Notes: generated from the letters alone by a model not told the origin. DNA of 64,000 nt from Raja brachyura (GCA_963514005.1 OY740790.1:48918001-48982000); one strand, 5' to 3'; shown: positions 1,523 to 45,727, counted from the stretch's first letter. Numbers and translations: made by a program.

Positions 1523-3897
1523 AAGAATAGAGATGGACTGGGATAACTGTTGTGATGCTTTGTTGGTTGAATATCCTGCTCACCATTACTGTCAAGGCTT
1601 GTGAACAGTGAACACGGGTGAGGTACCAATGGCTGTGCCATCATACATCCAGAAAATGTCAATATTTAAGGGGGGGGAGGAGAAAGGAAAAAGAGTGGTT
1701 AGGGAATAAAAATTCAACCAGCTCTCATATCAGCTTTAACAGATTTCATATTAGTTATAAATCTTTTAAAGCCATGCTTCATTCAACATTTTACAATCCT
1801 CTAAATAGTATATGAAGACAGAAAAATAGAGACTTTTAGGAGGGGAGGGAGTTATAAGATATTAAAACAGTCCCAATGTTCCGATGACATGAACCATGTA
1901 TGAATCACATTCTTTTTCCAAATGTCATCAGACCCCTGAAACTGCCGCAGCACCTTTAATTGCTTCTGAACCTATTAGTGTTTTAATACTAAATGTAAAG
2001 TTCTGATTTTGAATCAAGAACCTATTAAAGTTTTAATAACTCACTGATATTTTTGCCCTTTTTTAACATCAGTCTCATTATACATACTCATAGGTAAGTG
2101 ATTAATACAGTAATGGTACAATTTGACAAATACATTCCGAGGGTAATATTTTTCAGAGAAATACTCCAGCATTTATATTAAACAAATGTCACGGTACTTG
2201 TCTTTTTGTCAGGGAGAAAATCTAACCTCCATGGATATATTTTTTCTGCTCTCTTTTTGTAGTGGAAAAACATCTACCACATGTTTAATGTTCAAAGGGT
2301 GGGGGGGGGTGGGGTTCTGAAAACACCATCACTTTCTCTGACCCTTGTCCTCTATCCCATAAGCCCACACAGTTGAGCACCAAGTCTTTTAATCAATTTC
2401 AGCCGAGAATGATAAGTGTCTCTTATCTCCATTGTCATTGTAATAGCTTCCAACATTTTAAGATTGAAATACGAAGCCTGGCAAACCTCAGTTATCAGCA
2501 GATGGGACCACTGCACATCAAACGGCACTGGCAATAAAGTCAAGTATAAATTGCTCTGAGACTTAGGTCTCTAGCTGCATAGGCAGCCTGAAAATCCTAT
2601 CTCTTTCTTGCTTCTGATTTTCTCCACTGCTCATGCTGCTGACCTGGGGCTCATGGCTTCTGTAACTGCCCCTAATAACTTTGCTGTCCGTGTATTCTGG
2701 TTGTATTTACAAACCTGAGGACGTCCTGTATAATGCCTGGGGGATATATATATCCTTTCAGTATCTCTGCAAAGAGACACCCTTGCTGAAATCTGTCATC
2801 GGGTAGTTTTATTAATTTTTATTTCCTCCTGACTTTGACAGCTGCTCTGCTAACACCCTGGCAAGTGTGAATTGTGTCACCACAGCAGAGAGCTTAGGTT
2901 TTAAATGGTAAGAGCAGAGAAGGTGACAACACTGTCAACAGTGAGAGCCCTATAGCAGCTGAAAAGCAAACACGATTGAGGATAGGTGGAAGAAAGAAAA
3001 ATCTTATACACAAAGAATATGTAGACTGGGGACCTAGTCTCAAAAGAAGCACATGACTCATTCAATTAAAATAAAAGTATGCACATCATTTTACTCAGAG
3101 GAAGAATGCAGAAAGTACAGGATAGTTTCCGGGATATAAAGATTGAGTACATTATGTTTTATTCTTTATTTTGAACAAAAATGATGACAATCTCTGACAT
3201 TATTCTTAATTTTTTTTACAATAGGTTCATATTTCTGGAAGATGGTACTTTTCACTTTCTGTTCATCGTTTTTAATTAATATTTCTGTGAGGAAGACATT
3301 TACGTTTTAATATAGAGACATACTAGGCACATTAATCAGTCAGTAATTTAGTAGATGCTGAGAACAATGTAGTCTTTGGAAGTCGAGGTAATTTTGCAAC
3401 AGTCCCAGGGATTTGTTAGGGTTAGAGGCATAAAACACCTTTGACAGTGGCAAAGGCTTTATAAAATGTGCACATCACCCTTTGCTGAGCAACAGGAAGA
3501 GGTTTTGACTTGTGGTTTCCCCTTAACTTTGTTTCGGATGATTTGTGTTTGTGGACCATGGATTTTGTGTGCCTCAACGAATGGGTTCTGGAGGCCCTAA
3601 CATTTCATGAGCTTTAGGACAAGTCCATATATTATCCTCTCTAACAAGCTTGTGTCCCACACATCCATCAGTTATACTTTTGATACCTAAAGGGTTGTGC
3701 CCCTTCCTCCGTGGGATTGTGAATCACCATGTGGTTAAGCATTGTGTTTCGTGGCATTTTTGAACTTGTTGGAAAATCGATCTACTTAAGACACAGAATA
3801 GAACATATTTGAAGGGATATTGAATAAACATTTGAGGTAGAAGTGAAAAGTTAATAGAGAATTTGTAAGACTTTGGTTTTAGGTTGTTGTAAAAATT

Positions 3898-4006
3898 AAT
3901 AGTAAGATTAAACGAGAACTTACCAGTTTGAAGTTTGATCTTTATTTTATGAGGAGTTGCGATGAGGGATTTCGTGAAGAACCCGCCAGCACGCATGCGC
4001 GACATA
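3898..4006 (-). repeat. DIRS 3' (right) terminus: right ITR plus 3' extension
   Basis: 3898-3976 is the exact reverse complement of 4125-4203. 3971-4006 is the exact reverse complement of 9194-9229. Confidence 0.95.
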
Positions 4007-4124
4007 CTTCAAAGCCGCGGTGTGGAATCACAGAAAAACCAAGCCAAGAAATGACTTGTTATAGTAAGATTAAAGAGACTCTAGTTACCAGTTGACTTTA
4101 TGATCGAGGGTTGGGAGCGGAGGG

Positions 4125-4237
4125 CACGAAATCCCTCATCGCAACTCCTCATAAAATAAAGATCAAACTTCAAACTGGTAAGTTCTCGTTTAATCTTACT
4201 ATTTCATTTCGGAGTCACGTGAGTGACTTCGTGAAGA
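4125..4237 (-). repeat. DIRS internal complementary region (ICR)
   Basis: 4125-4203 is complementary to the right end (3898-3976) and 4198-4237 to the left end (9220-9259). The two parts overlap at ACTATT (4198-4203), the predicted circle junction. Confidence 0.95.
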
Positions 4238-4381
4238 CTTCAAAGCTTCTGTGATTTCACGCCCTGGACAACGTCCATGCTATCACACACGCTACTGAAA
4301 AGGTGGACAGCAGTAATCAATTTCCGTCACTGTTTCTCTGAAAAATAATAATATTTATTAATAACAACAAGAAAGGACCCC

Positions 4382-5371
4382 TCACTGAGGGGGAACTGTA
4401 TGTTCTCGGCCTGCATCCAGCACGGCTCCTGCGAACATTCCAGGTACGGTGACGGGTTTATTGTAAAACCGTTGAAAAGTGGCTTCACTGGCCCATCCCG
4501 CTGTGGCAAGTATCTGGTCCATGGGCACCTCCATGGCCTTTGCCGCCGATGTTGATGCTGCCCTGGTGGAATGGGATTTAAAAACATCAGTGTCAATACC
4601 TGCTTTGTTCAAGACGATCCTGAGCCATCGGGATATCGTCTGCACCGTCACTCTATGGTGAGGTTTTTTATGACTGATGAACAGGTATTGCTCCATTCCC
4701 CTTATTTTCCTCGTCACTTTGATATAGTGGCGGATATGGGTGGCTATGCATAGCCTAGCATCAGCGGGGTATGCTGGAAACTCCAGCTGCAGCCCTGTAA
4801 ATCCAGGTCTATGCTGCTTGAGCAATTCATCAATGAAGAAAGTGACCCGTTCAGGGGTAGAGATCATTCTGTCGATCTTGGCCTTGTGAAGCGTTTGCAC
4901 CCTTTGTGCTGAAGTAAGTGCCATCAACATCACCACCTTCAGGGTGAGTTTGTCCAATTCGAGCCCCGTCATGGGTGACCATGTTCTCAGCAGGGTCAGT
5001 ACTTTGCCAATATCCCATGTGACGTTGTAACGGGGCCTCGGCGGGTTGGAATTAAATATCCCCCGCATAAGTTTGGAGACCAATTTATTGGATCCTACCT
5101 CAATATTGAGGTAGGACGAGAGCGCACTCCTGGCGCTATTGATGGCACTATAGCTGAGATGTTGATCATGGTGTAGCCCCGCAAGAAATTCCAGCACATC
5201 TGTGATGGAGACGGAGTCATATGCAACGTCCATGCGGCCACAATAGGATTCCCATTTCCTGATGTACGATAAGTACTGCCGTCTTGAGGACTCCCTGCAT
5301 GATGCTCCCATGGTATCCATTGTCCTTGAAGATAGACCATACTGAAGTAGTGGCCTGTTCAGATCCTGCAA
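4382..5371 (-). CDS. DIRS ORF3 tyrosine recombinase (phage integrase family, N-terminal SAM-like core-binding region)
   Basis: 329 codons. Catalytic motifs SAQR, HSTR, AGW and RFYNK give an intact R-H-R-(W)-Y set. The ORF opens at TTG, and the first in-frame ATG lies after the conserved GLS segment. Confidence 0.95.
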   Translation of the reverse strand: MQDLNRPLLQYGLSSRTMDTMGASCRESSRRQYLSYIRKWESYCGRMDVAYDSVSITDVLEFLAGLHHDQHLSYSAINSARSALSSYLNIEVGSNKLVSKLMRGIFNSNPPRPRYNVTWDIGKVLTLLRTWSPMTGLELDKLTLKVVMLMALTSAQRVQTLHKAKIDRMISTPERVTFFIDELLKQHRPGFTGLQLEFPAYPADARLCIATHIRHYIKVTRKIRGMEQYLFISHKKPHHRVTVQTISRWLRIVLNKAGIDTDVFKSHSTRAASTSAAKAMEVPMDQILATAGWASEATFQRFYNKPVTVPGMFAGAVLDAGREHTVPPQ

Positions 5372-7368
5372 GCCAATAGATTCAAATGACTATGGCAGGG
5401 GTGTGGTTCCCCTGTGGCAGGGTTCGTCACCAATTGTGGGCAACCCTCCAAGAGGACCCATGGTTGACTTATCATTCCAAGGACCACCGGATACCATGAT
5501 TGCGTAGGCCAGTCGGGTATAATGAGGATGCCCTTGGCAGCATCGAGCTGGATTTTCCGCAATACCCGACTGATGAGGCAGAATGGAGGAAAGGCATAGA
5601 AGAACCATTTCCCCCAGTCTAGCGAGAATGCGTCCATCGCCATTGCCCCAGGATCTGGCTCCCATGATACGTATGTTGGTACCTGATGGTTCAACCGTGA
5701 CGCAAAAAGGTCAATATCCGGTTTACCAAATTTGGCTGTAATTTTGGTGAATATTTGGGGGTTCAACATCCACTCGATGTTGTCATTGAACTTCCGTGAC
5801 CTGGTGTCCGCCACTGTATTGAGCTCACCTGGCAAGTAGGTAGCTGAGATCCAAATATTCCGTTGAATACACCAGAGCCAAATTGTGTTTGCCAATTCAT
5901 TGCATGAAATTGACCTGGTACCGCCCATATGATTCAGATAAGCCACCGCAGTGGTATTGTCTATTTGGAGACGGACATGAGTGTTAGTCATGTTTGAACA
6001 ATAGGCTCTTAGTCCGTGGAATGCTCCTAGCATCTCCAAATAGTTTATCCCTTGTGCTAACAACAAAGTAGCTTCACGTGAATCCCATCTACCTCCACAA
6101 CTGTTATTGTTGTCCGTAGCTCCCCAGCCATGGGAGCTTGCATCTGTTTGCAAGTATACCATTGGACGAGGCACAATGATGGGTTTAAAAGAGTTATGGA
6201 TATTGCCAATCCACCATAGTAACTCAAGTTTTGCCTTAACCGGCAATTGCATGGGTCTATCATAATGTCCAGCATTTAGTTTTAATGCTGTTATTTTTGA
6301 CCTTTGTAAATTCTGATAGTGTAAAGGTCCATATTGAGCAGCTGGAAATACTGCTACAATTTTGCCAATTACCCTGGCAGTTAATCTGATAGACGGTATA
6401 CTGGCGCAGACCAGGTTCTTGCATGCTTGAAACACATCACCAATTTTGTTAGTTGGGATGGTGGTGATCATGCGATTGGAGTCTATTGTGAACCCCAAGT
6501 AGTCCATGATCTGTGCGGGGAGGAACTTTGATTTGTCTGGATGGATTATAAACCCCATTTGTTGAAAAATTTCCACTGTGGCTGAAACCGCCAACTCTGC
6601 GGATTCCAGAGTGTGCCCAATTATCAGAATGTCATCCAAATAGGCCATGACCGTATGATTTTGTCTCCGCAGTGTAGATAACACTGGCTTGAGTAGTTTG
6701 GTGAACAGTCTGGGGGCTGTAGTAAGCCCATTGGGCAATGCTTTGTATTGCCAAAGCTGATCCATCCAGGTAAACTTCAAGAACTTCCTATGATGTTTCC
6801 GAATGGATACTGAATAGTATGCATCTTTTAAATCAATGCATGCCATGAAGCAGCCCTCCGAAATCAAAGATTTGGCTGTTTCAAATGTGTCCATTTTGAA
6901 ATGGGTGTATTTTACAAAGGTATTCAAGTGAGTTAAATCTATAATGACCCGGCATCCACCGTCTTTTTTAGTTTTAGTAAATATATTAGACACAAATTCA
7001 ACTGGTTCATGTGTGGTTCGTTCTATCACACCTTTGTCTTGTAAACTCAAGATTTCAGCATAGCCTTCTGCCAATTCTTTTTTGGAAAGTGCAAATTTGC
7101 GATTCGGCATATGCTGGGGTGGAGGCAATTGGCCATGAATAAACTCAATTTCATAACCCTGAATACTTTGCAAGATAAACTCATCTGAAGTGATGGTTTC
7201 CCAAGCCTCCTTAAATCCCCGTAATCTGCCCCCAATTCGTGAGGTTAGACATGCAAGTGCATGGAACCCAGACCCCCTTACCTTCATGGTTATCGGCGGT
7301 CCCTGGGATTTTTGGTGGGACGTGGAGGCGCTGGGTTTCGTGGTTGGTGCGGAATCCGCATCTTCCAT
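5359..7368 (-). CDS. pol: DIRS ORF2: reverse transcriptase, RNase H and DNA N6-adenine methyltransferase-like domain
   Basis: 669 aa. RT motifs CRVIIDL, IDLKDAY, LPNGL, YLDD, YLG. RNase H motifs TDAS, INYLE, IDNTTA, NTVADTRSR. MT-like motifs DIDLFAS and YAFPPF. Confidence 0.96.
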   Translation of the reverse strand: MEDADSAPTTKPSASTSHQKSQGPPITMKVRGSGFHALACLTSRIGGRLRGFKEAWETITSDEFILQSIQGYEIEFIHGQLPPPQHMPNRKFALSKKELAEGYAEILSLQDKGVIERTTHEPVEFVSNIFTKTKKDGGCRVIIDLTHLNTFVKYTHFKMDTFETAKSLISEGCFMACIDLKDAYYSVSIRKHHRKFLKFTWMDQLWQYKALPNGLTTAPRLFTKLLKPVLSTLRRQNHTVMAYLDDILIIGHTLESAELAVSATVEIFQQMGFIIHPDKSKFLPAQIMDYLGFTIDSNRMITTIPTNKIGDVFQACKNLVCASIPSIRLTARVIGKIVAVFPAAQYGPLHYQNLQRSKITALKLNAGHYDRPMQLPVKAKLELLWWIGNIHNSFKPIIVPRPMVYLQTDASSHGWGATDNNNSCGGRWDSREATLLLAQGINYLEMLGAFHGLRAYCSNMTNTHVRLQIDNTTAVAYLNHMGGTRSISCNELANTIWLWCIQRNIWISATYLPGELNTVADTRSRKFNDNIEWMLNPQIFTKITAKFGKPDIDLFASRLNHQVPTYVSWEPDPGAMAMDAFSLDWGKWFFYAFPPFCLISRVLRKIQLDAAKGILIIPDWPTQSWYPVVLGMISQPWVLLEGCPQLVTNPATGEPHPCHSHLNLLACRI

Positions 7369-9056
7369 GCTGGCCGCTGAGGGCCTAGTCCTAAAAAAGG
7401 CCTGGGCTGATGAGGCTGTTGATATTGAGGAGGTGCCGGAACGTAGGTCCTTGTTGGCCTATCGGTCTGACCTCGTGGCCTGAAGTAAGGTGTCTTCTTG
7501 GCCGAAGGTCTGGCCACAAAATGTGGTCTCATCAGACCTATGGTTTTCGCATGGTCATCGAGCTCTTTGACCTGCTTTGGGAGGTCTTCCCCGAACAGCT
7601 GTCTAGGTGGGGGGGTAGGAGGTGCTCTGCATAGTCCCGCAAATTTGGGATTTAAGGAAGGTTTGATAATGCTCTTCCGGAAAGCGTTGATCTCGTACTG
7701 CGTATTGCAGAGTAGAGCTAGAGCATCCTCCTGTTCGGTGCTTAGATCAACCCCATCTACCGACTTTGCAAAAGCGGTGATCCCAGACGTAAGCAGTTTT
7801 AAAATCCTCTGCAGTTTCACTTCCTGCGCTCTGATGCCCGGGCTGATATTACCCCAGATTGGCATGTTCACAATCGGCACGTGGAGTGAATTGCAGTTCC
7901 CTGGAGCCTTGTGTCTCTCCATGGCCTTCGCAAGGACCTCCTCCTGCAATTGATGGTTAGTAAGATAATCTATGGTTGCGGCCAGTTTGATGTTGAGGGG
8001 TAGTCCTGACGATACGGGTAACCCGAATTTGGCTGCCACATCCAGCAGATCTTCCTGAGGGACCTCAGGTGCTGCTGGGGCATGTACCAGGATATCCTCC
8101 TCATCTGGTCTTATGTTGTCCATAGATGGGGACGGGGATATATCCATGAGTCCCCTGGAGCTGTGTGTGTCCTGTTTCTGATTGAGTAGAACTTGCTCCA
8201 ATATCCTCTCCATACGATCCAAGCGCCCTTCATCGGGCGGGTGTGGGAGGTAAGAGGCCTCGTGCCCGAAGGAACTCCTGAGGCTTCGATCATCAGTCCG
8301 TACCTCGTCGAGGTAATATCGGTACTGTGATGATGTGTCGCTACCAGCCGCCTCGGCGAAGCTGAGCGATTCCCGCGCGGACCTGCTCGAGCGCCTCCTC
8401 TTCGCTGAGCTGGACCCGGCTGCCTCAAAGGGCATGGGTGGGGAGAGGTCGGCACCTGACGCCGCAGCGTGGTGACCCGACGTCCGCACGGGCTTGCCGA
8501 CTGTCCTAAATCTGGACCCAGACGGCGTACGGTCCCGACCTGCCCCCAGCGGGGGAAGCGGTGACCTAGGCGAGGCTCCACCCTTGTGACTCCTCCTGGT
8601 CCCCCTGGGTGGTGAGTCGACACTGGCCCTCCTTGGTCTGCCAGTGGACTCGGGCCTGCCTGATTCACCAGACCACTTCCTAGTGGCTCCTGGTGAGACC
8701 TCAACCCGCGAAGGGCTAGGTAGTGGAATTGTATCCCTGCCTCCTTCAAGAGGGCTCAGGGAGAAGGGCCGTGCATCAGCACGCGAATCCCTCTTGCTCG
8801 TCTCTGCGAACGACCCAGTGGGTGAGAGAGAGATGGAGTCAGGATGCACCTGCTCCGGCGCTGTACCGACTGATTGTTCTGCAGGTACCCCGCTAGGGCA
8901 TAGCTGCGTCGGTAAACCGGGTCCTGTGAATACAGGGCTCCCCGGCTTGCGCGCCTTTTTCCCGGCCCGTCCTCCTGCCGTGGAGGGGGGCTCCGGGTTG
9001 GGTTGCCGACAACTCCTTGCAGAAGTTTTACGGCCTTTACTTTTCCTACTGTCCAT
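7290..9056 (-). CDS. gag: DIRS ORF1 Gag-like protein (588 aa from the ATG at 9056)
   Basis: First ORF of the element. Low-complexity S/P/R N-terminal half. C-terminal region PGNC..L.VP.VN..IW...LFGEDL..VK is typical of DIRS ORF1. The ORF track's TTG start at 9104 falls within a predicted leader intron; ATG 9056 has a GAC-ATG-G context. Confidence 0.85.
   Translation of the reverse strand: MDSRKSKGRKTSARSCRQPNPEPPSTAGGRAGKKARKPGSPVFTGPGLPTQLCPSGVPAEQSVGTAPEQVHPDSISLSPTGSFAETSKRDSRADARPFSLSPLEGGRDTIPLPSPSRVEVSPGATRKWSGESGRPESTGRPRRASVDSPPRGTRRSHKGGASPRSPLPPLGAGRDRTPSGSRFRTVGKPVRTSGHHAAASGADLSPPMPFEAAGSSSAKRRRSSRSARESLSFAEAAGSDTSSQYRYYLDEVRTDDRSLRSSFGHEASYLPHPPDEGRLDRMERILEQVLLNQKQDTHSSRGLMDISPSPSMDNIRPDEEDILVHAPAAPEVPQEDLLDVAAKFGLPVSSGLPLNIKLAATIDYLTNHQLQEEVLAKAMERHKAPGNCNSLHVPIVNMPIWGNISPGIRAQEVKLQRILKLLTSGITAFAKSVDGVDLSTEQEDALALLCNTQYEINAFRKSIIKPSLNPKFAGLCRAPPTPPPRQLFGEDLPKQVKELDDHAKTIGLMRPHFVARPSAKKTPYFRPRGQTDRPTRTYVPAPPQYQQPHQPRPFLGLGPQRPAWKMRIPHQPRNPAPPRPTKNPRDRR
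7392..7398 (-). promoter_or_regulatory. Candidate -1 ribosomal frameshift heptamer T_TTT_TTA (also TTTTTTAG acceptor-like)
   Basis: In gag phase (CCT TTT TTA GGA). ORF2 is in the -1 frame and open from here. A GGCC-ctcagc-GGCC hairpin lies 6 nt downstream. Confidence 0.6.
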
Positions 9057-9193
9057 GTCTCTGTGGAAGAAAACACAATTATTCACACAGAACAACCAAC
9101 TCAAGGTTGTTAGTACTTACCTGAGTGGCCCTTATGAAGGGCTGGTGATGAGCCGCGCTCCTCTCCAGCCGTCGACTGCAATGCGAGCGACGA

Positions 9194-9259
9194 TATGTCG
9201 CGCATGCGTGCTGGCGGGTTCTTCACGAAGTCACTCACGTGACTCCGAAATGAAATAGT
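9194..9259 (-). repeat. DIRS 5' (left) terminus / left ITR
   Basis: 9194-9229 is inverted relative to 3971-4006. 9220-9259 is inverted relative to the ICR segment 4198-4237. Confidence 0.95.
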
Positions 9260-10981
9260 GATCCCTCGGATGATGGGCTGATTGTTTCCTTATTTGCTGC
9301 AAATTTTCCTAATGCTTTTCTTCATATCTTAGGATATATTCTCTTTGAGGTTAGGCAGAGAAGAACTGCGCTGTTACATAATGAAACTCATTGAAACTAC
9401 AAAAGAGAAACAGACTGTGAAGTTCATGTTTTGCATTTTTTACTCAAGCAGGGGTGTCTCTGTCCTTTTCCATATTCCTCCATTCCCCTTTCATTATCTT
9501 GTTTAACATTCTTAAATATTCTCTACTCTGCTTCTGGCAGTAATGGTAACAATATTTACATGACCTCAAAAACCACAATAAAAAAAGAATATCAATTTTT
9601 ATGTCGTAACTCTTTTACATTTAATCCTTTGCTTAAATCCCTCATTCTTGACTCTTCAATAATTGGAAGCAGTTGTTTTTTTTTATCTGTTCTGTTTTGT
9701 TTCTTTGTTATATTAAACTCTTCTGTGAAATCATCCTTTAATTTCCTCTTTGAATGAAAACAACCCAACTTTCATGTTGTTTTATTGTGTGTGTTTCTTT
9801 GTGAGGCTTGAATATGAGCTGTACCCTTTAAATATACCTCAAGAATCTTTCTACAATGTTAAGCATTAAACTGCACACAGTGAGTGAACTAAGGTTAATA
9901 CAACTTTTGTATTATAGCTTGCTTTTTATGTTTTATGCCTCTTACTATAAGGTCCATCATTCCATTGGTTTCCTTATCCACTTGAGTTTTCGCATGTCAT
10001 GTAAATCCTATCCCTGCGTCCAATGCTCATCAACAACATGAAACTTTCTTATATACGTAGGATAATTCTTTGGTAAAACATACTACCTCATACTTGCTAG
10101 TATTGCTATTCTGATACTGATTTCAAATTTGGTGGTTCTCTCTCTCTAGCCTGGTATCCGAACTATTGATGTATGGAATGAACACGATGCAGTCTGACAG
10201 ACGCACACACATTTTGAAACATGAAATATTTATTGCAGTGAAGGAGCACAAGTGGATGCACTGACGGGAATCAGACATGATCAGAAATTGGTGAACAGGA
10301 CATCTACATCACACAATATTACAGCTGTCTTATGTTATCTGTTGCCTTGATCAGCTATTGTAGTTGCTGGTTTGAAATCGCCGGCCCGCCCCATACATTT
10401 ACCTAACACTAATGAGACTTATTGATTGGAAGTATGGGATTTGTAAAGGTTACAGGGTTAAAGTACATAAAACTGTCTTTTCTGTTGCAGCAGGTTTTCT
10501 GTAATATCGGTTTGGATTGGTCAGTGGGGAGATATTAAAGTTCCCATGCATGAAGACGTAGGCAAGGCACAGTATGATTTGGACTGTTAATTGGCTGCTG
10601 ACCATACCATTGTTTCCTTGGTTCTTCAGGTTGTTGCTAAAGGGTGACATGAAATTAAATACCATGTAGGTAATGTTACATCAGAGTGTTACATGATTAT
10701 CACTAGATTTTAAATGAATTATACTGGTTTTCATAGTGGAAAACCTTGGAAGTTCATTTTTGCGGGCATAGGGTGGCAGAAAGGATGCGTTGTGTGGCTG
10801 AAAAGCTGTTAACCAATATATTATTTAATCTAAGTCAGTTGAGCAAATTGATTGGTCCAGTTATTTACATTTTAGGTTTGAAACCCAGAAATTTCAAGTG
10901 TCACAAAACATGTGAAAAACAGCCAATCATGTTATCCCAACACTTGGCCATGCATTGTCCTGAATATTGATGAATCACACA

Positions 10982-17679: not shown

Positions 17680-18645
17680 GTATTGTTATATGCACATGTA
17701 CAGTGCAGTACAGGTACAATTAAAGTTTTGTTTGCAGCAGCATCGCTGACACATAGACTCAGACACACAAAAAATTTATTAGATATAAATTATGCATTCA
17801 TTCTGCAAGACGGTAGTGAAAAAAACAATGCCAAAAACAAAACAAGGTCGGCACGATTGCGCAGCGTAGAGTTGATGCCTTACAACGCTAGAGACCCGGT
17901 TTCAATCCTGACCACGGGTGCTGTCTGTACGGAGTTTGAACGTTCTTGCCATGATGTGCATGTGTTTTCTTTGGGTGTTCTGGTTTCCTCCCACACTCTA
18001 AAGACATACAGGTTTTGTAGGCTAATTGGCTTGGTATAATTGTAAATTGTCCCCAGTGTGCATAGGTTAGTGTTAGTGTGCGGGGATCGCTGGTCAGCGC
18101 GGACTTGGTGGGCCGAAGGGCCTGTTTCTGCACTGCATCTCTAAACTAAACTAACATTTGTACAAAATGCAATTAGAGAAACAAGTCCAAAGTAGTGCAA
18201 GAGGTTGCCGGAATGTTTTATTTTTGAAGTCGGATTGGGATTCGAGAATCTGATGATTGTAGGAAAGGTGTTTAAGAATCTGACGGTGCATGACTTCAGG
18301 CTTCTGTACCAACGGCCCAACGGTAGAAGTGATAAGATAGCATGACCCAGATGGTGAGGATTCTTCATGATAGATGTCGCCTTCATGTAGATGCTTTTGT
18401 TGGTGGTGAGGTCTGTGCCGTTGATGGACTGGGCTGAGTTCACCACTTTGTACAGCCTCTTGTGTTCCTCTGTCTCAGGATTGCCATCCTGAGCCATGAT
18501 GCAACCTGTCAGTATACTTGCTACAGCGCATCTGTAGAAATTTGTCAGAGCATTAGGTGACATGCCGAGTAAGTAGAGACAATGGCATGTCTTCTTCGTG
18601 ATTACATCTATTTCTATGTTTAGAAGGTCTAAGAATGAAGGCACC
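17680..18645 (-). mobile_element. Rex1/Babar-clade LINE 3' fragment, interrupted by a V-SINE
   Basis: ORF 18141-18671: LTNFYRCAVASILTGCI..KRLYKVVNSAQSI..PHHLGH..LLPLGRWYRS..RFLNTF, the Rex1/Babar RT C-terminus. The 3' UTR continues left of the SINE. Confidence 0.8.
17846..18154 (+). mobile_element. HE1-type V-SINE, full length
   Basis: tRNA-derived head (GCGCAGCGTAGAG..GGTTTCAATCC), V-domain (GGGTGTTCTGGTTTCCTCCCACA), CR1-like tail GGGCCGAAGGGCCTGTTTC and (CTAAA)n. Confidence 0.88.
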
Positions 18646-20665: not shown

Positions 20666-21844
20666 TATGTATATGATATTTAAAATCATGAAGGATAGTT
20701 AGAGACCCACTGTTTCCATTGGCGGTGGAGCAAATTATCGGAAGATATAGAATTATTCTAGTGTACAAAAGAATCAAAAGTTCAATTAATTTTAATCAGT
20801 GGTTAATGTTTGGAATGCACTGGGTGGGATTGAAGTGGGCATAAATTCAGTTGTGGTATTCAAAAAAGAATAGGATGTACTTGACAGGAAAATAAATTCA
20901 AGGCTGCAAGGAAAGGAAAGTGCCAATACCAGGATTGCTCGTGCATGGAGCCAGCACAAATTGAGGGGCTGAATAGCTTCCTCTTTGGTAAAGGATAGTG
21001 AATTTCTCGAAATCTCTCCCTGAAAAATGCTTTTCAGGCTTGGTCAACTGGACATTTTAAAAGCAACTTTTTTTCTAAGGCAGGGATACATTGGGAAATG
21101 AAGCCAATCAGCCAATAGAGTTGAAATATAAACCAAATGTGGTCTAATGAATGGAAGAATATGATTTGGGGACCAAATGGCTTACTGTTCCTTATAGTAA
21201 ATCTGCTTTATACTAATAGTATAACATATGTTTTCTGTTGCACAACATGCCATATTTTGTTTCAAACAGCTTGTTTAATGAAATTCTTAGAAAAAGCGTA
21301 ATGAAGAATAATTGAAATGCCTTTGGCTTGAGTAGCCTTCAATAGAAGCCTGTCAAGTGAGGCGAAAAATTAAGGATACAATTACAATTTAAAAGCAATA
21401 ATATAACTAATTCTGTTATGCTACTCATCATTTTTAAAAAAAGCCTTATTAATTATAATCATAGAACTTAGCATCTGTGTAAATGTCCATCTTTCACATC
21501 TTGCTAAGATTTGTGAGTACAGACAGGGACTACCTTTTTAAGTAACCTGAGTGTTTGGTCAATCAATTTTTCCAGTATCTCAATTTCCATTTGTCTGAGG
21601 AATTAACAAATTGTGTCATATATTGTGCTGATGCATCCAGCCACATTTCTGGTCTTGTCTCCAGATGGTTTATATGTCTGCAATTCAACAGCACTTAGGC
21701 ACTTACTATTTGTATGGGGTACCCGTCTATCAATGTCCTGCCAAAGTGAGGCCCTGGGAACACCTCACCCAAGACGTTCAACCTTGGTCCTGGGCCTCAA
21801 ACATTGCAGTCACTGCAGTTGGAGAAGAAAATTCAATTTATTTC

Positions 21845-22142
21845 TAGTTTAGTTTAGAGCTACAACACGGAAACAGGCCCTTTGGCCCACCGAGTCCGCA
21901 CCAACCAGCGATTCCCGTACACTTGCACTATCCTACACACTAAGAACAATTTATAATCTTTACCAAAGCCAATTAACCTACAAACCTTTGGAGTGTGGGA
22001 GGAAACCAGAGCACCTGGGGAAAATCCACGTGGTCATGGGGACAACGTACAAACTCCATATAGACAGCACCCATAGTCAGGATCGAACCCAGGTAGCTGG
22101 CTCTGTGAGGTAGCAACCCTACTGCTGTGCCAATGTGCCACC
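21845..22142 (-). mobile_element. HE1-type V-SINE, full length
   Basis: Reverse complement of the 17846-18154 family, including head, V-domain and (TTTAG)n tail. Confidence 0.88.
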
Positions 22143-23691
22143 TCCTGCACCTTCCCATGTCATCTGAATAAATTGAGATTCGTTATATCCATGATTCGTT
22201 ATATCTGTCCTTAAACCTGAGATAGGCATAACTTTCCTGCTTGCTTACCAGTTGCAAGGATAGGAAGAAAGCTTCTTCTGCCATTATACTAGCTGTGATT
22301 ATGGACATGAGTGAAGCTCTTTGCATTAACCAGCCCACTGATTATCCTTTTGTTTTCAAACTGAAAGGACTTCTATGAATTAGTCTATGGAGATTAGAAA
22401 GCCACCAAGACAAGAAATATGAATTCTATTTGCGTATTTATATTCAATATTTTTTTTAATATGTGTGTTGGCACCATAGGTAGCAGTTTATTATGAAGTA
22501 TATTGAGTTCGCTGGGATATAAAAGTAAAAACAAACATAAGAAGTATTGAAAAATAATGATGTTAATTGCAATTCTCAATTTTTTAAACCTGTTCCTGAT
22601 GATAAAGTTGATAATTTCTCTCAATCAATGTTTTTTATTATGTAATAATAGAACTGTTTACCAGGCAACATTTAGATAACTCTAGCTGTCATTGAATATC
22701 ATTTAGTAAGTTATTGTTTCATATTCAGCTAAAATGAGTGCACGTTATGATGATACATCCAAAAGGAATCAATACAGCATTTCACAATTCACAAGATGTT
22801 TTTGTACTTTCTACTTTTAACTTGATTTTTATTAGCTCAATAAAAACATTTCTATTGTGTCAGTGCATTTGATAAAAAATTCCCAGCCAAGAGCGAATTA
22901 CAAGCATATCTATGTCTGCAGGCACTAAACTGTGAAGTCAAAAGATAATTCAGCACCATATTTTAAAGCTATATTTAAAACCCGAGTGTGTAAGGATGCA
23001 GTAACAACCTCCCCACTGCCCTGGATTTGGGGAGGAATTTGAAGTCAAAGTCTGTGTGCATTACTAAATAATCTTAAAAATGAGAAATGTTTTATTCCTT
23101 TGAATGAGTCTGCAATATGTCTGATTGCTTTTTCCCTCATAAAACTGTGCTTTTGGCAAGGGTCTGTCCTTGCCCAATGTAAATCTCTACAACAGAGTAG
23201 ATGAAGTTTTGCTACATACAGATGTAAAGAATTTTTGGAGCATGTGTTGTTCAAATAAAATACTGTGGCTTCATTCAACTAGCCTGTCATTTCAATTTAA
23301 ACCTATGTTGCATAGAACCCGAGTCATATCAGCATCTGAAGATGCGAATTTGGGAGTTCAAGAGCTAAAGAGAATATGGGACAAAATATATTGAAGAATC
23401 TGCTTTTTGTAGAGGAAGCAGCTGTAATTATTTCCAAAAAGTGCCACAATAATGAATGTGCATTGCTGATGGTTACAAAATCTCTGAATTAGGGATCAGA
23501 GACATAACTTTGTTTTCCGCAATGTTTTTAAGTATAATGGTTTCTGTCTTTAAAAGAAGCAGTAAGCTTCTCCTCAGCTCGTTTTGCTGTCATTATTATC
23601 TGAACTCACCACACTTATCACAATCTATAATTTGTTGTCCATAGGGGCTAGAAGAATATATCATTTGATATAATGAGGTGCCATAGTCCTA

Positions 23692-24680
23692 AAGATAGAC
23701 ACAAAATGCTGGAGTAACTCGGCATTTCTAGAGAGAAGTAATGCATGATGTTTTGGGGCCGAGACCCTTCTTCTGCCAGTTCAGAGTAGCATATCTCTGA
23801 AGATTTGTCCTGGGCCCAGCACATTGATGCAATCACAAACAAAGCTCATCAACATCTCTACTTCCTTAGATGTTCGAGGAGATTCGGCATAACCCAAATA
23901 AGATCATAAATTCATTAATCATAGTAGTAGAATTAGGCCATTCAGCTCATCGAGTCTACTCCTCCATTCAATCATGGCTGGGCTATCTTTCCTTCTCAAC
24001 CCCATTCTCCTGCCTTCTTCCAATAACCTTTCACACCCTTACTAATCAAGAACCTGTCAATCTCTGCTTTAAAAATACCCAATGACGGCCTCCACAACCG
24101 TCTGTGACAATGAATTCCCCAGATTCACCACTAGTCAGAGGGTGGTGCACCTGGGGAATTCATTGCCACAGATGGCTGTCTGCCTAATCTGCCTAATCTC
24201 CTTTCTAAAGGTTTGTACTTTTATTCTGAGGCTTCTGGTCCTAGACTCTCCCACTAGGGAAACATCCTTTCCACATCCAATATTCTATCAAACATCTACA
24301 GGTAAATAATAGAGAGCACAGAGGTTGCATCTTGGCCTGCTTCAGTAATTATTTTTCTCCCACATTCCAAAAGATGTACAGGTTTGGATGTTAATTGCCT
24401 CAGGTAAAAATTGTAAATTGTCCATAGTGTATAGGTTAGTGCTAGTGTACGGGGATCGCTGGTTGGCGCGGACTCAGTGTCTGCACTGTATCTCTATACT
24501 AATCTAAACTAAACTTAACATTACATCTTTGGGAAATGGAAGGAATCCAATGCATCCGGAGGAAATCCATATGGTTTCAGAGGGAACATAAAAGACAGCG
24601 TACAGACAGCACCTGAGGTCAGGATTGATGACGAGTCACTAGAGTTATGAGACATCAGCCTTTACTGCAGCACCATCATG
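23692..24680. mobile_element. Nested repeat cluster: Penelope-derived (-, 23692-23775), Rex1/Babar (+, ~23780-23900 resuming ~24280-24348), CR1 3' end (-, ~23915-24277), V-SINE halves (+ ~24352-24515; - ~24520-24680)
   Basis: ISEDLSWAQHIDAITNKAHQHLYFLR..RRFG (Rex1/Babar) resumes as ILSNIYR..IES after the CR1 tail. SINE tail (CTAAA)n at ~24500. Confidence 0.7.
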
Positions 24681-26830: not shown

Positions 26831-28944
26831 TGAAATAGACCATAAGTATAATCAGGAGTAGGCCATCTGGGCCCTCATGTCCAATTATAGTTTAAAATCA
26901 TGGCTGGTGTTTTACCTTAGTTCTGCCTTCCACCACTAACCGTTAGCCATTGAATCTATCAATATCTAAACATCTTTCCTATATTTACTCATTGCAGATA
27001 ATGCACAATATTTTCCATATGATTTCTTAATCTTTGTTGCTTCTGTTTACCAACCTTTTGAGGGAATTGAACAATGTGAGGTCTCAGTGTTTAGATTGCA
27101 GTTCCTATCCTCAGATTTGCACATTATATCTAATAAGCAAACTGAAAGAATTGCTGTAGTTCCTGAGGCTTGAAACTTTAAACTTTGTTGGCAACAGAGG
27201 CCACATCCCACAGGCCAGGCCATTTACTACAAACTGTTTTTCACCAACTTCATTGATTTAATTCACAATATCATGTTGAATTTTTGGAGTTGCATTCCAA
27301 CATGCTTTCACATGTTATGCAAGCTCTTTATGCTGATATGCTTTGTTAAGTGACCATAGGTTACCAAGATATGGCACAGTATAGCATTGCACAGGGATAC
27401 GAGAGGTATTCTTCAATTCCAATTCACTGACAGTGGAGTACTATGAGTGAAATTTATGCAAGAAGGCCAATATGATGCATAGACCAGATAATCTTTTTTG
27501 TATGTTACCACACAACCTAGAGTGCACATTGATTCTGCAGTTTTTAACGTGAGTGACTGGATCCTGTGCAGTAGCACAGTAGCACATACCTGCAGTCTGA
27601 CCTCTTGGTCTCTCTAGTAACATCTGGTACAGGGTATGAGCATATTTTGTTCAAAGTCGGATTTATCACAGTATCTGACGCAGGGAGGCAGCAACACAGA
27701 GTCAGGCATGATGGGCACTGTGACCCTGAAATGTCCCAGGCGTACTCCAGTTGAATACCAAAGATATGTTAAAAGGTTGGAATGGGTGGGCACAAAATCA
27801 TGGCCAGTTCTACTAGATGGTAGTACTTTTTCACTTTGATGTGCCATAGAGGAGAGCCATTGCTTCAAAAAGTGACAACCAGAACTACAGTCAACCTGAG
27901 CTGCCTCACTGTTTAGTGCTGTAGTTGGTTCCTGGGGCCAGGGAGCACAGTGTCTGTCTGGTCTCATGGCCAGAAATGGTGCACGTGGGCCAGCGAGACC
28001 AAAGGAAAGGAAATGGAAAAAACATATTACAAAACGTGGCACTAATTCTTCAACAAAGATAAGGACAGTCATTGTCTTACTTATTGTTTAAACATTAGAA
28101 TCGCTGCTCCTACAAATGAACTGGCCTGTTGTAAGCATCCCTAAACAGGCTCTAATTAAGATTGCTTTATTTTAATTCTTGTCGTGGGAGGCGGGGGATG
28201 AGGATGTGGTGACTTAATTCTCTTCCCCGCAGCTACTGGTTAAGGTGAATATGTGAATAGCTAACCCGGCTAGGCACCTTCATTTTGCGGGTCACTGCTT
28301 GGGTAATGGTCTATTAATTTGCTCTATTTTCCCATGTGAGGCAAACTCAATTTCTTGGGTGGATTGTGAGCTAACTGTTGACATTGTGATTGATTGGTTG
28401 AACAGATGTTGTAGCCCACATCCCCCCCCCCCCCCCCCCCCACCCATCTAAAAAAACTTACAGGCAGTATTTACTACATGCAGTATCTGCCGTGCACCAT
28501 GAAAAATGACAAAAATATTGAACAATAAATAGGGTTTACAAACCCAATTTAAAACTATTATGGTAGGCTGTGTTACAGATGGGGCTGCTTGATACTCATC
28601 TTAAATAAAATAGAATTTTCTTATCACTATAATTTTAAATCGGTATCAAATGAGGAAATGCAGTGATAAATTCAATTTCTACTGATGGATTCCACTGTTT
28701 GCAGTTGACTGTTGCATGGCAATGTAAACACTGAATGCTTGTCAAACAAATAATTTCCCAAACTTGGGCCAAGAGTCCGATTTGAATTTGCCGAGGGCAA
28801 GTGAACTCACTGTGTGCAAGACTGATGGTGCACCATACACAAGCATAAAACTTTTCCTTTCAGTTTGTCCTTGTCTTTTTATTATTATTTGTATTTTCAG
28901 AAGTTTGTTTGTCATAATGTTTTTCCTTTCACTAAGGCAATTGT

Positions 28945-29235
28945 GGGCTGCACAGTGGCGCAACGGTAGAGGTGCTGCCTTACGGAGCCAGAGACCCGGA
29001 TTTGATCCTGACCACGGGGGCTGCCTGTGTGGAGTTTGTACGATCTCCCTATGACCACATGGGTTTTCTCCGGGTGCTCCAGTTTCTTCCCACATTACGA
29101 AGACGTGCAGGTTTGTAGGATAATTGGCTTTTGTAAAATTGTCCCTAATGTGCAGGATAGAACTAGTGTAAGGGGATCGCAGACTCAGTGGGCCAAAGGG
29201 CCAGTTTGCACATTGTATCTCTAAGCTAAACTAAA
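28945..29235 (+). mobile_element. HE1-type V-SINE
   Basis: GTGGCGCAACGGTAGAG..TTTGATCC head, GGGTTTTCTCCGGGTGCTCCAGTTTCTTCCCACA V-domain, CTAAA tail. Confidence 0.88.
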
Positions 29236-29811
29236 ATGTTCCCAGACTTCTTCACATATCCTACTTGCTTTGGTGGCATCATACAAATGATCTGCCTTTA
29301 ATTTTCTTGCTGGCACTCCTTATGCGAGTTGATAATAGTGTCCAGAGAAAGAGGAAATGTGTGAATAATTATGTGGTTAGAAATATTTCACCCTCCTGAT
29401 AACAATTCCTCATTTTCTTTCCAACTTCCCTAAACTTTAAAGACTTCAATTGCTGAAAGCAATAGCAGATAATATAACTTCTCCCAGGTTTTCGTTTCTT
29501 GTGCAATACCTTATAACAATAGCTGCCGAGGGCCAATTAGGGTTAAAAGTGGAAAATAAATATTCACCTTGTATTCGTTTATTATTTTAATCAATTCATG
29601 GCATCCAAAAATGCTCTAAGGCAATCTCATTACAAAATATATTTTAAGGATAAAATAGATTGGTATTCGACGTGCAGGGATGTGACAGGCAACTGTAGAT
29701 GGTCTGGAAAGCAGAGTTGATGTTAATGATGATCTTATTCAATGTTGGAGCAGGCTTGATGGGCAATATGGCCTATTCTTGCTCCTAATTCATAAGTTTG
29801 TAAATATATAA

Positions 29812-30179: not shown

Positions 30180-31275
30180 TAGACCATAGAACAGCACAGG
30201 AACGGGGCCATTCAGCCCACAATGTTTTTGTGCTCTTGAGGGTGGCACAGTGGCGCAGCGATAGAGTTGTTGCCTTACAGTGCCCAAGATCCGTGTTTGT
30301 TCCTGACTACCAGTGCTGTCTGTCTGTCTGGAGTCTGTACATCTTTCCTGTGACAGTGTGGGTTTTCTCTGGGTGCTCTGGTGTCCTGTCACACTACAAA
30401 GATGTACAGGTTTGTAGGTTAATTGGCTTTGGTAAAATTGTAAATTATTCCTAGTGTGTAGGAAAATGCAACTTAACTGGGTGATCGCTGGTCGGCGCTG
30501 ACTCAGTGGGCCAAAGGGCCTGTTTCTGAGTTGTATCTGTAAAAATTAAACTAAATGATGCCTAGTTAACCTGTTCTCATATTCATGTACATGATGTGTA
30601 TCCCTATATTCCGTGCACCTTCATGTGCCTATCTAAAAGCCTCTTAAGCACCACTATTGTATCTGCCCCAACCATCACGCCGCCAATGCGTTCCAGGCGC
30701 CCGTCGCTCTCTGTGTAAAAAGACTTGTCCCACGCATCTCCATTGAACTTTCCCCCTCCACCTTGTAGCTACGCCCTCTAGTGTTGGACATTTCCATCCT
30801 GGGAAAAGAATATTAGTGTCTACCCTACCTGTACCTGTCGTAGTTTTATATACTGCTATCATGTTTCTCAACCTCCGACATTCGAGAGAAAACAATCCAA
30901 GTCTATCCAACCTCCCCCTGTTACTGAAACCCCCTAATCCAGGCAGCATTCTGGTAAACCTCCTCTGCACCCGCTCCCAAGCCTCCACATCTTTCATGTA
31001 ATACGACGTCCAGAACTGCACAAGATACCACAAATGCGGCCTAGCCACAGTCCTATAGAACTGCATCATGAATTCCTGACTCTTTTATTCAATGCCCCAA
31101 GCAATGAAGACAAGTACACCATGTGCATTCTTTACCACCCTTTCTACTTGTGCTGCCACCTATAGGGAGCGATGAACTTGGACTGCAAGATCCCTGTGCA
31201 TTCAATGTTGTTAAAAGTCTTGCCATTAACTGTATACTCCCTCCTTACATTCATCCTCCCAAAGTGCAACACCAT
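30180..31275 (-). mobile_element. CR1 LINE 3' fragment with a V-SINE inserted in its 3' UTR
   Basis: ORF 30644-31069: MMQFYRTVARPHL..VQFW..KDVEAWERVQRRFTRML..LGLFSLECRRLR. Confidence 0.88.
30240..30555 (+). mobile_element. HE1-type V-SINE
   Basis: GGTGGCACAGTGGCGCAGCGATAGAG head, V-domain, GGGCCAAAGGGCCTGTTTC tail. Confidence 0.85.
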
Positions 31276-44330: not shown

Positions 44331-45279
44331 ATTCAGTTACTGTAATCCCCCTTGCAGGCTTATTCTATCGGTTCTTATGCCTTGGACAAGGCTGATAAAT
44401 TAAGACGATCATATTGGGTGCAAGGCTAAATATGCAGGAAATGCAAAAGCCATTTAAAAATAGTTTTCAAAACCATTGAATATATTGGTTGGTGTTTATC
44501 AATATGACCATTGAATTATCCCATATAAGTGTTAAGATCATCCATTTAAAATTATATGACAGGTTTTAGGCTGGACTGAGTAAAAATCCTTCTCTTTTGC
44601 AATAAAATTAATTTGGGTGCTACATTAATTAAACTGTGTTACATTACTTCTCAAGTTATGAAGGAATCTTGTTTAAGCAAAGATTTATTATTCCAAAACT
44701 TAAAAAGGTATTCGTTTCTAAAATTCTTGTCAATTGGTAGGTCCATGGCTAGTTAGCCTGCAAATTAATTTTAGCAGAAAATTAGGAAATAAAGTTCTTT
44801 ATTTTGAAGGAATTTGTGCCCACATCAGAAATTGTGCCCAAAGTATGTTGGGCTTTTCTGTATTGTCCAAAAGAGAAGGTTTTTGTCGTAATGGTACAAG
44901 CCTTTTATATTTGAAATGAGGCAAGGTTTTCTATTCTGATCCAAAATGTTGCCTATTCCTTCCCTCCACAGACAGACACTCTCAGACACATAGGTTGATT
45001 GGCCTCCGACCACTGGCCTCAGAGCTTGATGAAAACAGAGGAGTTTAATAGCGGCAAATCTTTGGCATTGATGCCACTCCAATTCCTTCACTGGGAAAGA
45101 GAAAGTTCAAGTGTGTAGAAATCATATTGCACCTTAAAGCATAGGCTTATATATTTAATTGAGGGCTGTTTTGGAAAATGTTTTATTTATACATGCACAA
45201 AGTGATGAGACTGGTGCAGTTACTCGGAGTGAATATGCACAACTTGTGTGACTCTTAACCTACATATGATCTTGGTGTA

Positions 45280-45727
45280 AGTTCATAAGCCATTGGAGCA
45301 GAATTAGGCCATTTAGCCCATCGAGTCTAGTACGCCATTCAATCATGACTGATCTATCTTTCCATCTCAACCCCATTCCCCTGCCTTTTCGGCCATAACC
45401 TTTGATACCCTTACTAATTAAGAACCTGTCAATCTCCGTTTTAAAAATACCCAATGATTTGGCCTCCACGACCATCTGTAGCAATGAATTCCAGAGATTC
45501 ACCACCCTCTGACTAAATACATTCTTCCTCATCTCCTTTCTAAAGGTATGTCCTTTTATTCTGAGGCTGTGCCCTTTGGTCCTACAGTCTCCCACTAATG
45601 GAAACATCCTTTCCACATCCACTCTATCCAGGTCTTTCAATACTCGGTGGGTTTCAATGAGGTACCCCCTCATCCTTCTAAACTCCAGTGAGTACACGCA
45701 CAGTACCTTCAAACGCTCATCATACAA
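45280..45727 (-). mobile_element. CR1 LINE 3' fragment
   Basis: ORF 45260-45727: YDERLKVL..YSLEFRRMRGYLIET..FPL..TKGHSLRIKG..FSQRVVNLWNSL. Confidence 0.9.

Follow-up and report, generated by a model that had tools for sequence, protein, structure and literature searches.

A recently inserted DIRS1-like retrotransposon of Raja brachyura with a proposed gag/pol frameshift, a predicted pol-skipping splice and a candidate folded junction

How a compact retrotransposon expresses three overlapping ORFs, and by what sequence its tyrosine recombinase (YR) joins it to the host, are the questions raised by an element of Raja brachyura (GCA_963514005.1 OY740790.1:48918001-48982000; coordinates count from the first letter of this 64,000-nucleotide stretch, called the window). 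The literature searched left open how three overlapping ORFs are expressed in DIRS elements, and YR specificity had no experimental test according to the accessible text of PMC7192593. In the literature listings and accessible passages searched, no description was found of a slippery site, a splice donor or an integron-like/folded substrate in DIRS elements. The locus offers an intact copy with an observed empty site, and relatives supply exact coordinates for a proposed frameshift, splice and folded junction. We read it, with a probability of roughly 0.7, as an autonomous, short-ITR DIRS1-like element, recently inserted by YR crossover at an ATT core, with these three proposed devices. What is new is a proposed expression scheme common to many relatives; the 6-bp recombination core that had been proposed from the window sequence (hereafter the original prediction) is probably not real.

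Anatomy, coding capacity and classification

The element occupies positions 3898-9256 on the minus strand (5359 bp in the ATT register; 3898-9259 in the 6-bp register) and contains three inverted repeats, all exact, of 79 bp (3898-3976 with 4125-4203), 40 bp (9220-9259 with 4198-4237) and 36 bp (3971-4006 with 9194-9229). These exact repeats are far beyond chance, and re-computation returned all three mismatch-free pairs, as well as the three open ORFs, that the original prediction had listed. The 36-bp pair forms the conserved ITRs (left, 9194-9229; right, 3971-4006), and the two longer pairs relate the element ends to the ICR (4125-4237, 113 nt), in which the circle junction is stored with its core at 4201-4203. 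The left terminus (9220-9256, minus strand), which starts with the ATT core at 9256-9254, is complementary to the left ICR half over 37 bp, or 40 bp with three host bases, and the right terminus (3898-3976, minus strand; the divergent ITR plus an extension), which ends in ATT at 3900-3898, is complementary to the right half over 79 bp. The ICR halves overlap at 4198-4203, and the two element ends, when joined, equal the 113-nt ICR letter for letter. AATAGT is present at both element ends, where the host junctions lie, and in the ICR, as had been described. An exact 14-nt copy of the right-terminus tip lies between the ICR and the right ITR (4061-4074). No second copy of the element was found within the 64-kb window, and within the element there were inverted repeats only, with no long direct repeats of the kind that, split, characterise Ngaro/PAT. 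An AATAAA at 3946 had no counterpart at the equivalent place in relatives. The window also contains old interspersed repeats of 72-76% identity (17845-18157, 21842-22143, 28941-29237 and 30236-30555; 23907-24279 and 45278-45621), which presumably recall SINEs and the CR1/L2 remnants of cartilaginous fishes.

Three minus-strand ORFs were open from stop to stop (9116-7290, 7458-5359 and 5389-4382). ORF1 (7290-9056, minus strand), with 588 aa from an ATG at 9056, had no Pfam match, and is called gag-like from its position and from weak similarity found in 17 of 150 pol homologs. ORF2 (5359-7458, minus strand, in the -1 frame relative to gag) encodes reverse transcriptase (RVT_1, E = 5.5e-22), RNase H and a Dam-like methyltransferase, the last with a Pfam match (Dam, E = 7e-4) below the curated cut-off; its RT aspartate pair and four RNase H-type acidic residues were invariant among 38 aligned proteins, and the DLFASR and FPPF-type motifs were conserved. 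ORF3 (4382-5389, minus strand, in the -1 frame relative to pol with a 31-nt overlap) encodes the YR (Phage_integrase, E = 4.7e-8). In 34 YR proteins, R163, K191, R276 and W299 were invariant and H273 and Y309 were present in 97%, these six being what we take to be the catalytic residues. Intact catalytic motifs had been part of the original prediction. At E values up to 0.1, no Pfam match to a protease or DDE integrase was found in the element, and five further ORFs of the window had no Pfam match.

The ORF order gag, RT/RNase H, YR, the weak methyltransferase match after RNase H, the ITRs with an extension, and the ICR complementary to both ends with halves overlapping at the circular junction are all features of the DIRS1-like type, to which the element belongs with practical certainty. 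Anatomy, ORF order and motifs agree in this respect with the intact DIRS1-like element that had been predicted. By description only, it can be likened to four mollusc elements, AcaDIRS1/2 (Aplysia) and LgDIRS1/3 (Lottia), which, in the accessible part of PMC3266345, have ATT ends, an extension of about 48 bp, no long ORF overlap and a size of about 5 kb; Table 3 of that paper gives 31-36 bp for their conserved ITRs and 39-46 plus 86-88 bp for their ICRs. The corresponding figures in the window are an ITR of 36, an ICR of 37 plus 79, and 5359 bp. The ITRs had been thought unusually short, a view that the equally short ITRs of these mollusc elements do not sustain. The window differs from them in its host, probably a vertebrate, and the same part of that paper gives no ORF expression route for the four elements. 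DIRS-1 of Dictyostelium discoideum resembles the window element in having Gag, RT/RH/MT, YR and ITRs, but differs in its much longer ITRs and long ORF2/ORF3 overlap; according to the accessible text of PMC7192593 and PMC5633606, in which the word 'frameshift' is absent, its ICR is needed for transposition and its cDNA intermediates are single-stranded. Xenopus DIRS-like families share the domain order and the ICR, but are described in the available portion of PMC9210276 as having ITRs of about 120 bp, TTT ends and LAP2alpha in gag, none of which was seen in the window. Ngaro elements, too, are retrotransposons of the YR class in which YR lies in the -1 frame of RT/RH; they are set apart by split direct repeats and the lack of an MT domain, whereas ITRs, an ICR and a weak MT match were found in the window.

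Insertion, age and integration core

Contigs of four out of 24 listed runs (X1, X3, X17 and X20) were compared with positions 2700-10500. In X3, a run under another organism label, position 3897 was joined straight to 9254 (record 23), and the shared motif occurred once at this empty site, as is typical of a crossover insertion. The X3 flanks differed from the window at 18 of 2445 letters (0.7%); the joining piece was 1247 nt long with 6 differing letters, not localised. In X1, the left-flank contig stopped at 3903 and the right-flank contig carried 24 unaligned letters before 9254, an offset that fits an empty allele because it is expected if the contigs overlap by 30 letters. X1 therefore probably holds the empty allele as well, and its break at 3903 would fit a heterozygote. 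A contig of X17 also crossed the insertion site without the element; its offset there was 33 letters instead of 5356. The empty site was thus found as foretold, and the single motif in X3 bears out the expectation of YR-type insertion without a DDE-type duplication.

In X1, 4634 of 27264 compared pieces were at least 99% alike, and a 157-nt piece without differences reached a depth of 3512 against 10-12 in the flanks, depth being only a rough guide to copy number. The element family is large and partly young, and the insertion is recent and not fixed. The recency originally proposed is upheld by the X3 empty site and by near-identical family members at high depth, and two of the three outcomes named beforehand as contrary, highly diverged sister copies and a fixed insertion, did not occur. 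Loose ends at the element termini were absent among the 24 listed (2139 further). A single contig in X1, and another in X3, connected 3925 to 9227 across five intervening letters and may stem from a very small non-autonomous derivative or from a variant of the junction. A joint of 4204 to 3897, seen in 3 contigs of X1 and 4 of X3, may represent tail-to-tail right ends, which would hint at insertion beside existing copies. The listed flank pieces of X17 differed at 122 of 1017 letters (12%) and its element pieces at 34 of 2210 (1.5%), and its depth profile followed that of X1 (rho 0.97) at about 1/440. These element-like pieces could be carry-over of a high-copy family or horizontal transfer; the latter is not claimed, because carry-over explains the same data.

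For comparison, 84 related loci were gathered, 80 out of 214 metagenome matches and 4 from genome contigs. Together with the window they fell into 57 clusters at 88% identity, and the families are related, so that family counts overstate independence. Metagenome and genome contigs contained no match to an exact 24-nt terminus pattern. A gapped pattern built on the ITR hit a single viral sequence (L001), which was left out of the comparison, and no relatives were found in viral contigs. Four DIRS-like elements (L082, L083, L084 and L085) were situated on short contigs of bacterial MAGs (Anaerolineae, Sedimenticola and an unnamed bacterium), probably as misbinned eukaryotic DNA.

In four relatives whose two ends were paired automatically (L003, L004, L014 and L049), the termini overlapped by exactly 3 bp, ATT, and the overlap of L071 was ATT on inspection (L083 was a false pair). 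Since the ends of L003, L004 and L014 are homologous to those of the window, the core there would be ATT as well, with the three extra matches lying 5' in host DNA. ATT is in register with the relatives, yet three more bases match in the window copy: these (9257-9259, minus strand) match the circle junction and so give an apparent 6-bp core, and, as judged from the relatives, are themselves probably host DNA. Altogether 29 related left junctions were found, of which 21 were carried forward and 20 placed by script; those dropped were repeat insertions or doubtful assemblies (L005, L007, L010, L063 and L050), a cut ICR (L030) and unlike termini (L042 and L072). Beyond ATT, no extra matching base was seen in 13 of the 20, one in 5 and three in 2 (L083 was mis-registered by the script, with zero extra bases in the other reading, and the unplaced L031 had zero by eye); L024 and L046 had an altered core. 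Given a fixed 3-bp core, at least three extra matching bases have a chance probability of 0.05-0.08, and the hexamer as a 6-bp core is not beyond chance. It follows that a 6-bp requirement is not a property of the group. A 3-bp core, rather than an obligatory 6-bp one, is in our judgement very likely, and the three further matching bases probably reflect chance or a weak site preference. A 3-bp circular junction, with ATT ends the most frequent, is described for DIRS elements in the accessible part of PMC3266345.

The 6-bp homology requirement of the original prediction does not survive this comparison as a general rule: relatives with homologous termini use ATT, and 18 of the 20 left junctions have at most one further base. 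It is improbable, too, that for the window family by itself a 6-bp match of junction and target is required or strongly preferred. The two host junctions do share all six bases with the ICR, the hexamer is present once at the empty site, the central region of tyrosine recombinases usually has six bases (PMC4246890, as far as accessible), and some site preference exists in relatives: at 10 of 14 right ends the host +3 base agrees with the junction. That preference, however, falls on the other side of ATT, where the window copy mismatches; the termini of L003, L004, L014 and L049 overlap by ATT alone, and a three-base extra match is both rare among the left junctions and within reach of chance. 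After ATT, the host +3 base was A in 9 of the 14 right ends (window included) and the +1 base matched in 2 of 14, a possible target preference in which the row for L021 is of doubtful register.

Proposed expression of gag, pol and the recombinase

In nearly all loci, pol lies in the -1 frame of gag. The gag/pol overlap of the window is 169 nt long and carries, in the gag frame, a U_UUU_UUA slippery heptamer (7392-7398, minus strand). A heptamer of the form X XXY YYZ was present in the gag frame of the overlap in 35 of the 44 families with a readable pol start and lacking in 9, the total in the overlap being 45 gag-frame heptamers against 14 in the two other frames. Across the 35 families the types were TTTTTTA (19), AAAAAAC (12), TTTAAAC (3) and CCCAAAC (1), all of them classic viral shift sites. 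This switching of heptamer type favours a frameshift over a splice-acceptor reading, and TTTTTTAG as a pol splice acceptor was ruled out because 16 of the 35 families have other heptamers. Gag similarity was located in the same ORF as pol in 17 of the 150 pol homologs. Predicted folding downstream of the slippery sites was weak (z <= -2 in 10 of 34, median -1.1, window -0.8; computed without pseudoknots). On these sequence patterns a -1 ribosomal frameshift between gag and pol is highly probable: Gag (588 aa) would be read from 9056, and a -1 shift at 7398-7392 would bring some ribosomes into the pol frame.

Eight nucleotides past the gag stop, in pol phase 0, lies a predicted splice donor, AAG/GTAAGG (7276-7284, minus strand; intron start 7281). 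With at least 5 of 7 consensus positions as the criterion, a donor occurred within 60 nt past the gag stop in 36 of 44 families, as against 90 of 1118 windows inside pol, and was lacking in 8; it was in pol phase 0 in 34 of the 36. The predicted acceptor (5363-5380, minus strand) has a TGCAG that ends at 5366, with the first exon base at 5365 in YR phase 0, and the resulting predicted intron (7281 to 5366) measures 1916 nt. Joined in this way, the two sites would connect the pol frame to the YR frame, which in nearly all loci is the -1 frame of pol. In-frame acceptors upstream of the recombinase were found in 33 of 45 families, and neither site in 12. In 24 of 45 families, the serine codon that follows FPPF contains an AG in YR phase 0; the YR frame was open from this AG in 23 of the 24 and closed in 16 of the 21 families without it, and in nine families the last YR-frame stop was the FPPF AG itself. 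The FPPF codons by themselves yield a pyrimidine tract. TGCAG at the second site occurred in ten families including the window, all without the FPPF AG. These ten form one clade (SH-aLRT 100 in a quick, unfinished tree), on which the move to the predicted second acceptor is a single event. Heptamer, donor, acceptor and a YR frame of at least 280 codons were found together in 22 of 36 families, and a splice that skips pol appears probable.

Unspliced RNA with the -1 shift would thus yield Gag-Pol, and once 7281-5366 has been spliced out, this shift would run for 37 codons before entering YR, yielding Gag-YR. We give even odds to the statement that short-ITR DIRS1-like elements feed Gag-Pol (unspliced) and Gag-YR (pol spliced out) from one frameshift, and that this scheme is not yet in print. 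If confirmed, fusion to Gag would explain how, with no protease, both RT and YR reach the particle.

An alternative in which YR is reached without splicing, by a second -1 frameshift from pol that gives a Gag-Pol-YR polyprotein, would suit the -1 position of YR relative to pol, and YR similarity was indeed also seen in 7 of the 150 pol homologs, at least one of which is a eukaryotic gene model; such a frameshift was suggested for Ngaro by Poulter and Butler 2015, as quoted in the accessible part of PMC13003380. However, 9 of 45 families had pol-frame heptamers in the pol/YR overlap, 11 in total as compared with 19 in the remaining two frames, and the window had none; a second frameshift leaves both the phase-0 donor after the gag stop and the covariation of the acceptors unexplained, so that we hold this route to be very improbable. 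Equally poor are the prospects of a real splice that yields YR as a free protein instead of a Gag fusion: ATG AAG stands immediately before the donor in the window and a further ATG is found at 5320, so that YR could start without a frameshift, and in several relatives an ATG occurs close to the start of YR. In most relatives, however, there is none between gag stop and donor (judged by eye), the donor nevertheless keeps pol phase 0 in 34 of 36 families, and YR similarity to relatives begins upstream of 5320, the first ATG. Splicing that leads to Gag-YR is thus the reading we prefer.

In X20, a run that is RNA only by guess, no minus-strand joint of the intron ends was found among the 15 listed (39 further), and one contig covered a possible leader intron unspliced; neither observation weighs for or against splicing. 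Runs X21-X24, which share their samples with X12 and X13, contained almost none of the sequence words and prove nothing. The 60-nt leader intron (9061-9120, minus strand), just before the gag ATG, is a lead only; it was rejected as a conserved feature, no donor among 16 relatives scoring above 5 of 7. In L035, L042, L076 and L079, an open YR frame extends across pol for about 1900-2500 nt, as in the long-overlap type; these loci are without both acceptors, their donor scores are low or window-dependent, and they may use another route. A donor-like GTAAGT is also present about 25 nt from the right end (3918-3926, minus strand), in the terminal hairpin loop region. At 23-26 nt from the end of the scored right terminus, 14 of 16 families score 6 or 7 of 7 for this motif, for which U1 binding or a part in hairpin structure are guesses.

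The folded junction as a candidate recombination substrate

When junctions of the cDNA strand were folded as single-stranded DNA, the core was paired in 20 of 21 predicted folds and partly in one (L059 was unplaced). In the predicted fold of the window junction, positions 3944-3950 of the right terminus form pairs with the core plus the four bases that follow it. In an alignment of 22 junctions, pairing held in 87.8% of the cells of two named helices, and 8 of their 13 pairs showed changes on both sides; the observed pairing was reached by 0 of 500 shuffles, and slid controls gave 29-45%, for a structure that had been derived from the very sequences on which it was scored. The stem around the core belongs to the known divergent ITR, and may therefore be a by-product of end copying.

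In the mechanism proposed, the ICR would restore the element ends and form the junction, and the junction single strand would fold so that ATT lies in a duplex usable by YR. This would fit with single-stranded DIRS-1 cDNA, which yields new insertions (PMC7192593), and with tyrosine recombinases that can use folded single strands (PMC4246890), according to the accessible text of these papers. From the modelled folds, it is only tentatively suggested that the folded single strand is the YR substrate, and it is unlikely, though conceivable, that YR recombines the folded junction by a single strand exchange. Such a single exchange, if true, would explain why three bases of identity suffice. A parallel is offered by vibriophage attP(+), a folded single strand that is recombined by XerC/D with one pair of strand exchanges (accessible parts of PMC4246890; see also PMC3442271); it differs from the window in its host enzymes, its fixed chromosomal site and the lack of an RNA stage, and is an analogy, not a matter of membership. 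If confirmed, the folded junction would tie DIRS integration to the XerC/attP(+) kind of single-strand recombination. The right-end tip copy at 4061-4074, together with an inverted pair around the ICR (4019-4035/4247-4263), could give the RNA an alternative fold.
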